Shown here in pieces: positions 38,144 to 47,559 of a DNA stretch of 64,000 bases. The notes under the pieces are model-generated. The model had not been told where the DNA came from. It was given only the letters and a program-made list of their open reading frames with translations, and did not search any database. The position numbers were made by a program, and so were the translations under genes. Position 1 is the stretch's first letter, and each line of letters starts with the position of its first letter. The DNA lies in the IMG/VR virus record IMGVR_UViG_3300005535_000017, positions 146,331 to 210,330 of that record, one strand, 5' to 3'. Origin of the DNA: a virus. Its lineage: Duplodnaviria; Heunggongvirae; Uroviricota; Caudoviricetes.

Positions 38144-38211
38144 GGGCAGCGAGCTGGGCTCAGCGGAGACTCCAAATCTCGGCGTGCAGGGTTCGATTCC
38201 TTGGCGGCCCG
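38144..38211 (+). tRNA. tRNA-Trp(CCA)-like, short D-arm
   Basis: T-arm cagggTTCGATTccttg; ac-loop cTCCAaa; acceptor one mismatch. Confidence 0.45.
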
Positions 38212-38216
38212 CAAAT

Positions 38217-38287
38217 GCCCCTGTCGTTCAACGGCAGGACACTGGTTTCGTAAACCAGGAATGCGAGTTCGATTCTCGCCGGGGGCT
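38217..38287 (+). tRNA. tRNA-Thr(CGT)
   Basis: cloverleaf; ac stem ctggt/accag, loop tTCGTaa. Confidence 0.8.
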
Positions 38288-38293
38288 CTGAAC

Positions 38294-38369
38294 GCGGATG
38301 AGGTGTACTTGGTTGCACGCGTGCTTGCCAAGCATGAGGTAGCCGGTTCGAATCCGGTCATCCGCACCA
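38294..38369 (+). tRNA. tRNA-Gly(GCC), CCA encoded
   Basis: loop tTGCCaa; acceptor gcggatg/catccgc. Confidence 0.8.
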
Positions 38370-38450
38370 GGGGAATTCAGGAGAGTGCTCCGATGAAGGT
38401 GATGCAGTAGCGTAGTAAGAAGTGCTGCCGGCGAGTGAGCCGGCACGTTT

Positions 38451-38534
38451 GCCGGGGTTGACGGTAAGGTCACCGAGGCTGTCTGTAAAACAGTCGTCCC
38501 CAGGAACAACCCGGTTCGAGTCCGGGCTCCGGCA
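38451..38534 (+). tRNA. tRNA-Tyr(GTA), long variable arm
   Basis: loop cTGTAaa; T-arm cccggTTCGAGTccggg. Confidence 0.75.
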
Positions 38535-38631
38535 CCGAGGCGAGTAGCTCTCGCCGCGACTTTGAAAACCGAATAGTCGACAGCGAAGAAACTGGCTCCG
38601 GCATGTGCCGTCGCGACACAGTCGGGGCTTT

Positions 38632-38703
38632 GGGTGCCTAGCACAATGGAAGTGCAGCGGACTCTTAATCCGTTGGTTGTGGGTTCGACTCCCACGGCAC
38701 CCA
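38632..38703 (+). tRNA. tRNA-Lys(CTT)
   Basis: loop cTCTTaa; perfect acceptor. Confidence 0.85.
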
Positions 38704-38756
38704 CTGAGGTGAAGCATGGAACGAAAATCAAGCCCGAGCCGACAGCAGCATAGTCA

Positions 38757-38828
38757 GCTCCCGGAGCTCGGGCGGTAGAGCAGCGGACTTTTAATCCGTT
38801 GGCGAGGGTTCGACACCCTACGGGAGCA
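38757..38828 (+). tRNA. tRNA-Lys(TTT)
   Basis: loop cTTTTaa. Confidence 0.8.
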
Positions 38829-38832
38829 CAAT

Positions 38833-38903
38833 GCGCGTGTGATGTAGCGGTAGCATTCCAGTCTTCCAAACTGGCTGCGCGGGTTCAATCCCCGCCACGC
38901 GCT
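38833..38903 (+). tRNA. tRNA-Gly(TCC)
   Basis: ac stem ccagt/actgg, loop cTTCCaa. Confidence 0.8.
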
Positions 38904-39022
38904 CTAAAACCGGGTGATCCAGGTTCGAGTCCTGGGTGGGAAGGTGCGGCCCCTTGGTCTCCGTCGATGGCCGTCGACGGTGCGGGCCTCTGGTCTCCTT
39001 GAGAAGTCTCGCGAGCTCTCTC

Positions 39023-39135
39023 AACCCACTAGCTCAATTGGTAGAGCACTCGGTCTTTTGTTCGGGCGCCTCCGGCGAGGGGCGGGGTCTTTGAAATCCT
39101 GCTTGCTGGGATCGACACCCAGAGCCCGATCCAAC
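39023..39135 (+). ncRNA. degenerate tRNA-like element
   Basis: canonical D-arm tagctcaattggtagagca and T-like arm ctgggATCGACAcccag, ~60 nt between. Confidence 0.25.
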
Positions 39136-39143
39136 GTTTCTAC

Positions 39144-39214
39144 TCCGGGTTCGTCTAATGGTAGGACAGCGGTCTCTGACACCGTATGTGGGGGTTCGAG
39201 TCCCTCACCCGGAA
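39144..39214 (+). tRNA. tRNA-Gln(CTG)
   Basis: loop cTCTGac; acceptor tccgggt/acccgga. Confidence 0.8.
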
Positions 39215-39301
39215 CCGCCCGATGTCGTCTCCTCTGGTCTCCATGGAGCACCGCCTGACGAGGCAAAGGACTCCGGGTGCGGAGAGGACTAGGGTGACTC
39301 T

Positions 39302-39373
39302 GCCGACGTAGCACAACGGAAGTGCAGCGCCCTTGTAAAGCGAAGGTTGTCGGTTCGATTCCGACCGTCGGCT
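39302..39373 (+). tRNA. tRNA-Thr(TGT)
   Basis: loop cTTGTaa; ac stem has mismatches. Confidence 0.65.
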
Positions 39374-39589
39374 CTAGACTTTCTCCCAGCGCGCTTGCCA
39401 GTTGATTTCGAAATCGAAGGAAACGTCACCAGATCCGGGCTTGGTCTTCACGCCCACCACAGATGTGACAATGCTTGCTTGGTACTGACTACCGTCTGGA
39501 AGAGTGATGGTTACCCACGTAGGACGAGCGGAGGTGACCTCGTAGTCGAGAGGCAGAGAAGTTTCGGCTTTGGTCTTCGTCATGATCAT

Positions 39590-45414: not shown

Positions 45415-45500
45415 GCCCGAGTGGTGGAACCGGAATACACAGCCCACTTAAAATGAGCCGCGCCAAGAAGCGCTTGCGGGTTCGAATCCCGCCTCGGGCA
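45415..45500 (+). tRNA. tRNA-Leu(TAA), class II
   Basis: loop cTTAAaa; variable hairpin gcgc-caagaa-gcgc. Confidence 0.75.
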
Positions 45501-45504
45501 CTAT

Positions 45505-45592
45505 GGAGTGGTGGCAGAGCTGGCCTATTGCACCCGGTTGCTAACCGGACGGGTCCGAAAGGGCTCCGAGGGTTCGAATCCCTCTCACTCCT
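45505..45592 (+). tRNA. tRNA-Ser(GCT), class II
   Basis: loop tTGCTaa. Confidence 0.8.
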
Positions 45593-45622
45593 CCCCATCT
45601 TCGCTGTAGACTATTCGGATTC

Positions 45623-45694
45623 GCCCCCATGGTGTAACGGATAGCGCATCCGCCTTCTAAGCGGATAGTAGAGGTTCGATTCCTCTTGGGGGCG
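45623..45694 (+). tRNA. tRNA-Arg(TCT)
   Basis: ac stem tccgc/gcgga, loop cTTCTaa. Confidence 0.8.
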
Positions 45695-45698
45695 CTAC

Positions 45699-45788
45699 CG
45701 GCCTGTAGGTTAACGGTAAGACCGACCGCCTTATAAGCGGGGAGCGCCAGATAAGCGCGAAGTGCGGGTTCGAATCCCGCCAGGCCGA
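45699..45788 (+). tRNA. class-II (Leu-like) tRNA with anticodon TAT
   Basis: loop cTTATaa; 22-nt variable arm gcgc-cagataa-gcgc; same T-arm as Leu(TAA); discriminator A. Confidence 0.55.
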
Positions 45789-45792
45789 CCGA

Positions 45793-46221
45793 TTACGTGT
45801 AGGTGAGCTTGACGGTCTCGGTCTGACCGTTGTCGAGCTGGAAGACCAGCAGGTTCACTTCGGCCGCGGCGTTGGTCACGGCGATCGCGAACGCTCCGCT
45901 GGAGTTCGTCGCGAGCCAGAGCGACTTGGTGCCCGATCCGGCCACGGCCGTACCCGTACCGCCGCTGATCACCATGGTGCCAGCGCCCGAGACGGGAACC
46001 GATGTGACCAGGATGTCGGTGGCCACCTTGATCGGCGTGCCGTCGAGGTCGGTGAGCTGGCCTGTGACGATGATGACGTTGGTGTTCTCGGCGCCGACCG
46101 ACAGCGCCAGCACCTTCTCGTTGTTCGTGATCGCCTGTAGTACGGTGGCGATGACATCGCCGCTGTCTGCGAAGTGCTTCAGCTTCGCGAGCTGGTCCGC
46201 GGACACGTTGATCTTACTCAT
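45793..46221 (-). CDS. Gly/Thr-rich beta-type (possibly structural) protein
   Basis: internal Met with SD GAGGAG; GAGTMVISGGTGTAVAGSGT. Confidence 0.45.
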   Translation of the reverse strand: MSKINVSADQLAKLKHFADSGDVIATVLQAITNNEKVLALSVGAENTNVIIVTGQLTDLDGTPIKVATDILVTSVPVSGAGTMVISGGTGTAVAGSGTKSLWLATNSSGAFAIAVTNAAAEVNLLVFQLDNGQTETVKLTYT

Positions 46222-46360
46222 TCGCTTCTCCTCTTCGAAAGATTCGTGACCACGGGGTGGTCGTAGCTTCTGTAGCGTCTCAAAGAGACCTGGCGGTGGG
46301 AAGAGAAGAACAGCTTGATTCCACAGGCTCTTGGCGGTATCGCTGAAGACGGAGGCCACC

Positions 46361-46642
46361 ATGAGCGACCGTGAGAAGCCGGACTACGAACGGGCATTTA
46401 CCACCATCGAGGACTGCGAGAAGGAGATCTCTCGTCTCAAGGACGACATCTGCCGGAAGGTCAAAGCAAGAGGCCAGACCAAGCAGAACAAGAAGGACGC
46501 GATGGCGGGCTACAACGAGACTCTGAAGGAGCTCGAGGCCGATCTCGACTTCAACACCGAGGTCATCGACGAGCTCTTGCGCCACATGAAGCTGCTCGAT
46601 GCTCAGGGCGGCCCGAAGTCTCCCAAGCTCCAGAGCGTGTAG
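46361..46642 (+). CDS. small coiled-coil protein
   Basis: ORF. Confidence 0.4.
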   Translation: MSDREKPDYERAFTTIEDCEKEISRLKDDICRKVKARGQTKQNKKDAMAGYNETLKELEADLDFNTEVIDELLRHMKLLDAQGGPKSPKLQSV

Positions 46643-46727
46643 CGCTTGACATCTTGCTCGAGCATGGGTAGCTTCCTGTTCGAGTACATCATGTCCGCTT
46701 GCGCTTAACACACAGCTCCATCACTAC

Positions 46728-47063
46728 GTGATCATTCGCGAGGACCTTCCTCGCGGAACTCTCGCCGCCCAGATCACCCACGCGGCTCGAGAGTCCTCCA
46801 CGCAGTTCAAGATAGATCATTCACCCCTGCCGATTTTCGCCGTCGTGCTTGCTGCACGCTGCGAGACAGATCTGCTCGAGCTCGAAGCACGCCTGCGAGC
46901 CGGCGGGGTCCCTCACTTCGCCATGCGCGAGCCCGATCCGCCACTGAACGGCGCGATCACCGCCATCGGCTTGCCCCCACAACCCAAGTCCCAGCTCAAG
47001 AAGTACTTGAGCAGCATTCCCAAATTGAAAGAGGAGAGTTCCTATGAAAAACGCCCGCTATAA
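46728..47063 (+). CDS. peptidyl-tRNA hydrolase, PTH2 family
   Basis: IIREDLPRGTLAAQITHAA and REPDPPLNGAITAIGLPP match PTH2 conserved blocks. Confidence 0.65.
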   Translation: MIIREDLPRGTLAAQITHAARESSTQFKIDHSPLPIFAVVLAARCETDLLELEARLRAGGVPHFAMREPDPPLNGAITAIGLPPQPKSQLKKYLSSIPKLKEESSYEKRPL

Positions 47064-47325
47064 CATCCGTGAGTTGAGTACCAAGCTGCGCACGACGGCC
47101 GAGGAGATTCAGAAGCTGAAGAAGCAGATTCGCACGCCGCACTACTTGCCGTCGGCGCAGGAGTACAAGATCTTGGTGCATCTGAAGCACCTCGCTACGG
47201 CGCTGTGCTGTCTCCGAGCGCACCATCGCGGCAAGATGCACTTGCCGAACGATCTCGAGATGAATACACACTTGATCGAAGAGTTCGAGGGTGTGTACCT
47301 TCTCGTGAAGGAGGCTGCAGCGTAA
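47044..47325 (+). CDS. hypothetical protein
   Basis: SD GAGGAGAG. Confidence 0.4.
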   Translation: MKNARYNIRELSTKLRTTAEEIQKLKKQIRTPHYLPSAQEYKILVHLKHLATALCCLRAHHRGKMHLPNDLEMNTHLIEEFEGVYLLVKEAAA

Positions 47326-47332
47326 CACCTAC

Positions 47333-47405
47333 GGGGAGGTAGCTCAGTGTTAGAGCGTCGGCCATAAGCCGAGGGTCGTTGGTTCAACTCCAACCCTCCC
47401 CACCA
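47333..47405 (+). tRNA. tRNA-like, 5-nt anticodon loop (tcggc-CATAA-gccga), CCA encoded
   Basis: perfect acceptor, D and T arms. Confidence 0.5.
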
Positions 47406-47407
47406 AT

Positions 47408-47484
47408 ACGTTCGTAGCTCAGAGGAAGAGCGCCCAGCCTAAGCAACTGGGAGGTCGTGGGTTCAATCCCCATCGGACGTGCCA
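47408..47484 (+). tRNA. tRNA-like, 9-nt anticodon loop CCTAAGCAA, CCA encoded
   Basis: ac stem cccag/ctggg; other arms canonical. Confidence 0.5.
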
Positions 47485-47485
47485 C

Positions 47486-47559
47486 GGTCCCATAGCTCAG
47501 TGGTGGAGCAGCGAGCATAAGCAACTCGCAGGTCGCGGGTTCGAATCCCGCTGGGATCT
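47486..47559 (+). tRNA. tRNA-like, 9-nt anticodon loop CATAAGCAA
   Basis: ac stem gcgag/ctcgc; other arms canonical. Confidence 0.5.

Follow-up and report, generated by a model that had tools for sequence, protein, structure and literature searches.

RNase P RNA, which trims newly made transfer RNAs (tRNAs), belongs to the small number of ribozymes that occur in all cellular life, and its gene is regarded as a housekeeping gene of cells. Other translation functions, including tRNAs, synthetases, transfer-messenger RNA (tmRNA) and ribosomal proteins, are already known from large phages. Bacterial RNase P RNA constructs consisting of the catalytic domain only cleave pre-tRNA in vitro and are improved by the protein subunit, and both archaeal type-T RNAs (Thermoproteaceae) and engineered catalytic-domain constructs function with little or no specificity domain. 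Reduced natural forms have been described in the Candidate Phyla Radiation, where RNase P RNAs fall below Rfam thresholds and some are without P12–P14 and P18 (PMC8172020, Lui et al. 2021); other known RNase P RNAs without P12 are those of Thermoproteaceae and Mycoplasma fermentans (PMC8172020). Two mycobacteria, Mycobacterium austroafricanum and M. sp. YC-RL4, have additional RNase P RNA copies beside an endonuclease gene, in which the specificity domain is altered; the authors who described them suspect a horizontal origin and leave the function open (PMC9569102, Behra et al. 2022). A 2024 review of RNase P mentions phages only as sources of tRNA substrates, and the full-text literature searched, which excludes most subscription journals, holds no description of a phage-encoded RNase P RNA. 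Here we analyze a 64-kb stretch (hereafter the window; positions 146,331 to 210,330 of the Caudoviricetes record IMGVR_UViG_3300005535_000017), in which a large tRNA island contains what is very probably a true, selected homologue of bacterial RNase P RNA, reduced to little more than its catalytic domain.

The island was searched with ARAGORN, Rfam covariance models, Pfam and PHROGs. Between the end of tRNA-Thr(GGU) at 42829 and the start of tRNA-Arg(ACG) at 43063 lies a 233-nucleotide (nt) gap, which the first-pass annotation of this DNA had passed over and which holds the RNase P RNA homologue (Table 1). A permissive Rfam scan aligned it to positions 1–367 of RF00010, and RNaseP_bact_a was the best member of the RNase P clan. 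The P1 helix (GCAUCUUGA/UCAAGAUGU, 9 base pairs (bp)) starts directly after tRNA-Thr, and the 3′ end of the RNA is 3 nt before tRNA-Arg. Helices P1, P2, P3, P4 and P5, the P15/L15 module and the conserved regions (CR) CR-I (GAGGAAGUUCGCGG), CR-IV and CR-V (ACAAAACCGCGGCUAC) are kept. CR-IV (J18/2, AGAYGAAUGA) is present as UUAGACGAAUGA at 43009–43020 and leads into the 3′ strand of P2, which has six solid pairs with covariation. CR-I and CR-V form P4 with its bulged U, AGU[U]CGCGG pairing with CCGCG-GCU, and all eight positions are paired in the window copy. The P15 helix (GGCAA/UUGCU) is present with GGG immediately 5′ of its 3′ strand, L15 reads GGGUUG, and the J3/4 adenosines and the L15 GGU motif are conserved.

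The specificity domain (P7–P14, CR-II and CR-III), which in the bacterial RNA recognizes the elbow of D-loop and T-loop in tRNA, is gone, 105 model positions being represented by 7 aligned nt, and about 56 nt of hairpin stand in its place between the P5 strands. P18 is also absent, with 24 model positions deleted. No CR-III-like motif above chance was found elsewhere in the window, which led us to reject a specificity domain supplied in trans. An archaeal type-T RNA was rejected as well, because the bacterial type-A model fits best and P15/L15 is present; the likeness to type T is one of design only.

Relatives were sought with pattern scans that required CR-I and CR-IV at short spacing. An exact-word scan of viral contigs with the window CR-I gave no matches, and a first degenerate pattern gave 80 loci, 79 of them chance matches, after which a tighter pattern was used. 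Besides near-identical strain copies on two contigs (L083 and L089), seven further distinct versions are present in phage tRNA arrays, six of them metagenomic and one in the cultured Microbacterium phage A3Wally. The metagenomic versions measure 240 nt (L090/L091, in a 22-tRNA array with the architecture seen in the window; L090 84.4 bits), 257 nt (L096/L097, 23-tRNA array; L096 74.7 bits), 248 nt (L099, 56-kb viral contig; 61.8 bits), 261 nt (L100, 28-tRNA array on a 71-kb contig; 131.8 bits), 245 nt (L101, 47-kb contig; no Rfam score at E ≤ 1e-4) and 205 nt (L045, at the end of a 13-tRNA array on a 191-kb contig; 118.5 bits). The A3Wally element (221 nt; L103 2813–3033, about 93852–94072 of MZ150783.1) was traced by blastn with the L045 query. 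It lies unannotated between two tRNA-Pro genes, scores 72.0 bits (E = 6.5e-20) and has three relatives of about 91% identity (Zooman, Big4 and one more); blastn of the window and L100 elements against deposited phages returned nothing meaningful.

The homologues scored by Rfam reach 62–132 bits (E 2e-16 to 4e-40), two of them, L100 and L045, passing the gathering score of 100 bits. Five of the eight phage copies, the window's own counted, lie directly between tRNAs, and the P1 closing helix is intact in all copies (6–11 bp). A CR-III-like remnant, GGGUAAGAG, is kept in L096 and L100 and is not found in the window, L090, L099 or L101, so that by its sequences the family reads as a natural reduction series. 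With the same pattern, a scan of one genome per species across 185,579 bacterial and archaeal species found nothing real, a Levilactobacillus match being due to chance. A match in the Microcystis phage MaAM05 is surrounded by bacterial housekeeping genes and was set aside. Two RNase P RNAs without specificity domain were also seen on metagenome contigs with cellular genes, one at L084 4262–4474, on a contig that has leuA and tpiA, and one at L087 935–1158 (minus strand), on a contig that has rsmI, lpoA and mraZ. The gene context of the latter resembles the rnpB neighborhood of Pseudomonas; these copies may be real or assembly artefacts. A GOLLD RNA (191 bits) with an embedded tRNA is located at L099 1003–1462, about 4 kb upstream of the small RNase P RNA in the same array.

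Covariation was counted in P2, P4 (a pseudoknot), P5 and P15 across eight sequences, namely six from phage arrays together with L084 and L087. A full-length MAFFT alignment was unreliable around the variable hairpins, and core segments were counted instead, with helix strands placed at fixed offsets from conserved motifs and not fitted to pairing. Paired cells amounted to 94%, against 73.3 ± 2.1% in shuffles, none of 500 shuffles reaching the observed value. Both sides had changed in 16 of 25 pairs (8.6 expected), the covariation score was 0.60 compared with 0.18 in shuffles, and sliding the partners by 1–3 columns left 21–42% of cells paired. P4 was paired in 96.9% of cells, with compensatory changes at five of eight positions and an invariant bulged U, and P15 in 95%, with two compensatory positions; the window and L090 alone are separated by 16 compensatory pairs. 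Between strains, the RNase P RNA carries one single-nucleotide polymorphism in 460 aligned nt, as compared with 0.8% in tRNAs, 0.8% in spacers and 1.5% in open reading frames (ORFs). These observations are what one expects of a structured RNA that selection maintains, and they do not suit a pseudogene in decay.

The surrounding region is almost certainly a phage tRNA island. ARAGORN with default settings called 43 tRNA genes; all are on the plus strand from 38217 to 47560, and the rest of the window had no call. Thresholds at 95% added Trp(CCA) at 38144–38212 and Ser(GGA) at 44978–45064 with no false positives; at 90%, Cys(GCA) at 39667–39737 was added together with one false positive outside the island, for a total of 46 genes, and at 85% or less spurious calls appeared throughout the window. 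Including a Gln(UUG) cloverleaf found by hand, the island has about 47 tRNA genes, all co-oriented and at many sites only 0–12 nt apart. In all, 38 genes score above the RF00005 threshold (29 bits): gathering mode gave 36 of them, and Asp (47.6 bits) and Glu(UUC) (47.8 bits) had been dropped by speed filters. Below the threshold are Trp, Cys, Tyr(GUA), the Ala(UGC)-like gene, the second CAU tRNA, Val(CAC), Ser(GGA), Ser(CGA) and the Gln(UUG) candidate. Ser(GGA) and Ser(CGA) match the tRNA-Sec model at 38–41 bits, and the non-canonical Trp and Cys genes match that model only, at about 22 bits each.

The first-pass annotation had counted about 45 tRNA genes, 38 of them with assignable anticodons and several non-canonical, and both figures agree with the ARAGORN range (43 by default, 46 when relaxed) and the Rfam tally; the far smaller number of automated calls that it had named as a refutation did not appear. 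ARAGORN also recovered the three Pro, four Arg, four Ser and two His isoacceptors that it had listed. The reported difference within the His pair is real, a G at 40565 standing opposite C73 of the gene at 40566–40642, and the neighbor at 40483–40560 having a C there and A73. In line with the earlier claim that no integrase is present, none of the 10 island ORFs has a Pfam integrase domain.

The 41 canonical anticodons read 59 of the 61 sense codons, or 60 with the Gln(UUG) candidate. Only CAA and GUA are without a tRNA, CAA being filled if that candidate works, and 99% of the 5495 codons in 13 confident phage genes are covered (GC content at third codon positions, 0.80). The earlier statement that all 20 amino acids are served is true of the relaxed ARAGORN set, on condition that Trp and Cys, both below threshold, are counted as genes. 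Rare phage codons have dedicated tRNAs (AUA is used three times and UUA twice), so the set fits independence from the host tRNA pool better than tuning to codon usage. The codon-usage comparison that had been proposed, made with the 13 confident genes, gave near-complete coverage without tuning to phage usage, and the tRNA set looks like a full replacement kit and not a supplement adjusted to phage codons. The suggestion that very large phages decouple in this way from host translation is supported by this near-complete, untuned set; it was incomplete in having missed the RNase P RNA and a PTH2-like peptidyl-tRNA hydrolase.

Several island tRNA genes depart from the canonical form. Four elements had been described as degenerate, and all four exist; two of them, at 42556–42630 and 39063–39133, look functional. 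The first has a G3:U70 pair, an encoded CCA and, in place of the D-arm, a 5-bp hairpin with a 3-nt loop, and Rfam matches it only to the tRNA-like ends of the tmRNA model. A tmRNA (RF00023) at 42556–42700 was rejected because the match covers 75 nt, with 312 model positions represented by 28 nt, and ARAGORN calls no tmRNA; judged from its sequence, the element is a tRNA-Ala-like gene and not a tmRNA. A weak permuted-tmRNA match (20.6 bits) was seen at 42603–42700. The second element folds in RNAfold as a clean cloverleaf with anticodon UUG. Some of the supposed tRNA remnants are probably working non-canonical tRNAs.

Miniature D-loops of 3–4 nt without G18G19 occur in at least five tRNAs, Trp, Gln(UUG), Ala(UGC)-like, the second CAU tRNA and Val(CAC) (43559–43634), all of which fold as cloverleaves; with such D-loops the normal D/T elbow cannot form. 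The second CAU tRNA is better delimited as 43489–43555 than as ARAGORN's overlapping call of 43478–43555, and the adjacent Met(CAU) has a U1.U72 mismatch. Two tRNA-Leu genes at 43816–43890 and 43895–43969 (UAG and CAA) are without the long variable arm. Short tRNA-Leu genes are also present in other phages (L090 5762–5839, L096 1023–1100, L099 5720–5796 and L100 1927–2003), so that five phages carrying the small RNase P RNA have them beside a normal long-arm tRNA-Leu. At 75–78 nt, these genes keep the Leu-type D-loop (AAYUGGYAGA) and A73. A tRNA with anticodon UAU, reading AUA, has a long structured variable arm in both the window (45699–45790) and L090 (4640–4732), where it is 92–93 nt long, and the arm covaries between the two (GCGC/GCGC versus GCAC/GUGC). 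Bacterial tRNAs are otherwise not known to have a long variable arm unless they are specific for Leu, Ser, Tyr or Sec.

The trio at the end of the island has cloverleaf scores of 50–62 bits and anticodon loops that share UAAGC, namely CCAUAAG (or a 5-nt loop), the 9-nt CCUAAGCAA and the 9-nt CAUAAGCAA; in some strains CUAUAAG replaces CCAUAAG in the first gene. A solitary tRNA at L102 7909–7982, on an unrelated AT-rich 55-kb phage contig, has the loop CUUAAGCAA, and the consensus of the window and L102 loops is C-N-U-A-A-G-C-A-A. A four-base anticodon, an extended stem and a decoy are candidate interpretations of the 9-nt-loop tRNAs, for which the viral-contig scans and the literature searched offered no explanation. 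On a 139-kb phage contig, L111 284–330 (minus strand) holds only a 3′ tRNA half, from ...UGUGUAAGCAA..., directly after an ORF stop codon, which may be an attachment-site fragment or may belong to a tRNA that is split or contains an intron and that shares this odd loop motif.

We propose that the island is transcribed as long precursors, in which the RNase P RNA would be co-transcribed with the tRNAs. The processing that frees neighboring tRNAs would also release the small RNase P RNA; tRNA-Thr abuts P1 and tRNA-Arg begins 3 nt after the element. The RNA is assumed to assemble with host RnpA, the sites for which all lie in the kept catalytic domain, and the ribozyme would then remove the 5′ leaders of phage pre-tRNAs, gripping their 3′ ends via the L15 GGU. 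Such cleavage is plausible in view of the in vitro activity of catalytic-domain constructs, and we predict, with rather more confidence than doubt, that the RNA is catalytically active in phage tRNA maturation. The capacity of the phage for tRNA maturation would scale with its own tRNA transcription and be independent of continued host rnpB expression. More speculatively, loss of the specificity domain may also allow the ribozyme to accept the island tRNAs with miniature D-loops. Whether several unrelated large-phage lineages encode, within their tRNA operons, an active RNase P without specificity domain, which tRNA processing would release, which would work with host RnpA and would have evolved for elbow-defective phage tRNAs that the host enzyme handles poorly, we consider evenly balanced. 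The reading as a whole, of a self-contained phage translation supply together with a minimal tRNA-processing ribozyme whose activity is predicted, appears reasonably probable.

Several points weigh against this proposal. The window RNA scores 46.6 bits, under the Rfam gathering score of 100, and its minimum free energy z-score is only −1.5. The CCA that L15 would bind is encoded by only about 16 of 47 tRNAs (manually corrected), and in model systems RNase P RNAs deprived of the specificity domain bind their substrates less tightly. A search of the 64-kb window of this >200-kb genome with a weak three-sequence hidden Markov model (HMM) built on approximate query sequences gave no RnpA homologue. 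In addition, the motifs that set the helix offsets in the covariation count were chosen by the author, and the strain polymorphism comparison for the RNase P RNA involves two strains only.

The complete tRNA set is equally compatible with protection from host tRNA-targeting defenses. It is possible, if not favored, that the set serves mainly in defense evasion, replacing host tRNAs lost to anticodon nucleases or to phage-induced RNA turnover, and that the odd-looped and D-loop-reduced tRNAs are nuclease-resistant versions or decoys. The set is complete and is not matched to codon use, as the AUA and UUA tRNAs illustrate, unusual anticodon loops or D-arms in several tRNAs are conserved across unrelated phages, and work on mycobacteriophage and T5 tRNAs reportedly supports this logic. 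However, evasion is compatible with the proposed tRNA-maturation role and does not exclude it, taken alone it leaves the RNase P RNA unexplained, and the window phage has no known host or defense system.

Less likely still is that the RNase P-like element binds without cutting. It would then soak up host RnpA or compete for pre-tRNA, and the result would be a shift in tRNA processing or a shutdown of tRNA maturation in the host. In favor of this, the known RnpA-contact regions (P2–P4, CR-IV and CR-V) are all kept, the substrate-recognition domain is gone and no phage rnpA was found in the window with the weak HMM. Yet the catalytic core is conserved in details not all of which a sponge would need (the P4 bulged U, the J3/4 adenosines, the L15 GGU and the P4/P15 covariation), and the phage's own tRNA operon, in which the element lies, would also suffer from blocked processing.

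It is very unlikely that the element is a functionless, decaying piece of a host rnpB gene that was captured and carried with the tRNA genes. Its low Rfam score, its large deletions and the clearly degenerate tRNA pieces in the island might suggest as much, but seven other phage lineages share this reduced design, with divergent sequence and pairing kept by compensatory changes, P1 is intact in all copies, and the element is the least variable segment between the two strains compared. An origin of the island in a bacterial chromosomal or plasmid tRNA array, as in some mycobacteria, where tRNA arrays with GOLLD RNA and, in two of them, extra RNase P RNA have been reported (PMC9569102), is hardly credible, given that the island is bordered by rIIA, rIIB, a PurZ-like gene and closely packed small ORFs, megablast against deposited phages gave tRNA-length matches only and the 185,579-species scan found no related element.

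The genome belongs to a jumbo lytic phage known from metagenomes only. Its very large size is indicated by the PTH2-like protein of the island, of which an identical copy is present on 24 metagenome contigs, two of them in the 0.2–1 Mb class; strain contigs are 96.7–99.9% identical. No close deposited phage was found, megablast of 14 kb against 50,697 phage records returning tRNA-length matches only. Homologues of rIIA (52665–54746, PHROGs E = 4e-96) and rIIB (51513–52652, PHROGs E = 2e-60) lie in the flank, the rIIA protein being about 30% identical to proteins of Streptomyces, roseobacter and Vibrio phages, together with ThyX, a LigD-like ligase and densely packed small ORFs. An adenylosuccinate synthetase homologue of the PurA/PurZ type (62757–63914, minus strand) matches a PHROG family named for PurZ-type enzymes (E = 7e-40), which hints that the phage DNA may carry 2-aminoadenine instead of adenine. 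Two gene products that are unusual for phages are encoded at 49789–51213 and 58054–60849 (minus strand), respectively a PARP-like protein in which WGR, regulatory and catalytic domains are combined and a 931-amino-acid (aa) protein with a major-vault-protein shoulder domain, and a search of viral contigs with the PARP protein found no relatives.

Within the island (Table 1), 10 ORFs, including two HNH endonuclease genes and the PTH2-like gene, are interspersed among the tRNA blocks. The Thr/RNase P RNA/Arg unit is flanked by two 126-nt spacers (42631–42756 and 43136–43261) to which no feature was assigned.

Table 1. Features of the tRNA island, in coordinates of the window. A dagger (†) in the first block marks a non-canonical gene below the Rfam tRNA threshold.
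Feature	Coordinates	Strand	Evidence
tRNA block 1, 22 genes: Trp(CCA)†, Thr(CGU), Gly(GCC), Tyr(GUA)†, Lys(CUU), Lys(UUU), Gly(UCC), Gln(UUG)† (39063–39133), Gln(CUG), Thr(UGU), Asn(GUU), Cys(GCA)†, Glu(CUC), Glu(UUC), Pro(UGG), Pro(GGG), Pro(CGG), Ile(GAU), His (two genes), Asp(GUC), Phe(GAA)	38144..40937	+	ARAGORN, Rfam, RNAfold
T-arm-only hairpin (block 1 remnant)	38916–38938		
5′ tRNA fragment (block 1 remnant)	39023–39060		
Degenerate tRNA-like element (block 1 remnant)	40786–40861		
ORF, 322 aa, predicted coiled coil, without family match	41013..41981	+	
tRNA-Ala(GGC), tRNA-Val(GAC), tRNA-Ala(CGC)	42029..42263	+	ARAGORN, Rfam
HNH endonuclease, 90 aa	42282..42554	+	Pfam PF01844, E = 5e-11
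tRNA-Ala(UGC)-like gene	42556..42630	+	ARAGORN, Rfam, RNAfold
tRNA-Thr(GGU), directly 5′ of RNase P RNA	42757..42829	+	ARAGORN, Rfam
Minimal RNase P RNA (activity predicted), 230 nt	42830..43059	+	Rfam RF00010, 46.6 bits, E = 5e-12
tRNA block, 10 genes: Arg(ACG), Arg(CCG), Arg(CCU), Met(CAU) (43415–43488), second CAU tRNA (43489–43555), Val(CAC), Leu(GAG), Leu(CAG), two 75-nt tRNA-Leu genes (UAG, CAA)	43063..43969	+	ARAGORN, Rfam, folding
HNH endonuclease, 181 aa	44002..44547	+	Pfam PF14279, E = 2e-15
Small cysteine-rich ORF, 94 aa, signal-peptide-like N-terminus, without family match	44562..44846	+	
tRNA block, 7 genes: Ser(UGA), Ser(GGA), Ser(CGA), Leu(UAA), Ser(GCU), Arg(UCU), 92-nt long-variable-arm tRNA (anticodon UAU)	44852..45790	+	ARAGORN, Rfam
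ORF, 55 aa, inside the preceding tRNA block	45079–45246		
ORF, 142 aa, without family match	45793..46221	−	
ORF, 93 aa, without family match	46361..46642	+	
PTH2-like peptidyl-tRNA hydrolase, 111 aa	46728..47063	+	Pfam PF01981, 32.3 bits (cut-off 23), E = 1e-7
ORF, 93 aa, without family match	47044..47325	+	
Three well-folded tRNA-like genes with abnormal anticodon loops	47333..47560	+	

A viral RNase P RNA would add tRNA 5′ maturation to the translation functions of large phages. If the proposed activity is true, no earlier RNase P would have come from a virus, and the phage ribozyme would be a minimal form of the bacterial enzyme that arose in nature; the reduction series would show which ribozyme parts are dispensable in vivo, so far studied mostly with engineered constructs. 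The element is present in cultured Microbacterium phages with a tractable host. For annotation, gaps of 200–260 nt in phage tRNA arrays merit RNase P models below the gathering score.

Compared with known systems, the tRNA island alone is a large new instance of the phage tRNA clusters already known from T4, T5, cluster C mycobacteriophages and huge phages, with which it shares tens of tRNAs on one strand, HNH genes, small ORFs and a near-complete set. It differs from them in its 46–47 genes, at the high end, and in the embedded RNase P RNA; this minimal RNA appears to be a new element of phage tRNA arrays, for which we found no description and a prior one is possible. The catalytic domain matches bacterial type-A RNase P RNA (RF00010, E. 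coli M1 RNA) helix by helix, with covariation supporting the pairings. In contrast to type A, the phage element is 230 nt long instead of roughly 350–400 nt, has a hairpin of about 56 nt for the specificity domain, is without P18, reads GAGGAAGUUC at CR-I where type A reads GAGGAAAGUCC, and is encoded by a phage within a tRNA operon and not at a cellular rnpB locus. Unlike archaeal type-T RNAs and engineered catalytic-domain constructs, it is of bacterial type A, keeps the P15/L15 CCA-binding module and is a natural virus gene. The extra mycobacterial copies (PMC9569102), compared here by their description only, are located in bacterial genomes, unlike the phage family. In the Candidate Phyla Radiation, the reduced RNA is the only RNase P RNA that the small cellular genome has, and many of these RNAs are without the CCA-binding motif, whereas the phage copies keep this motif and come in addition to the host enzyme.

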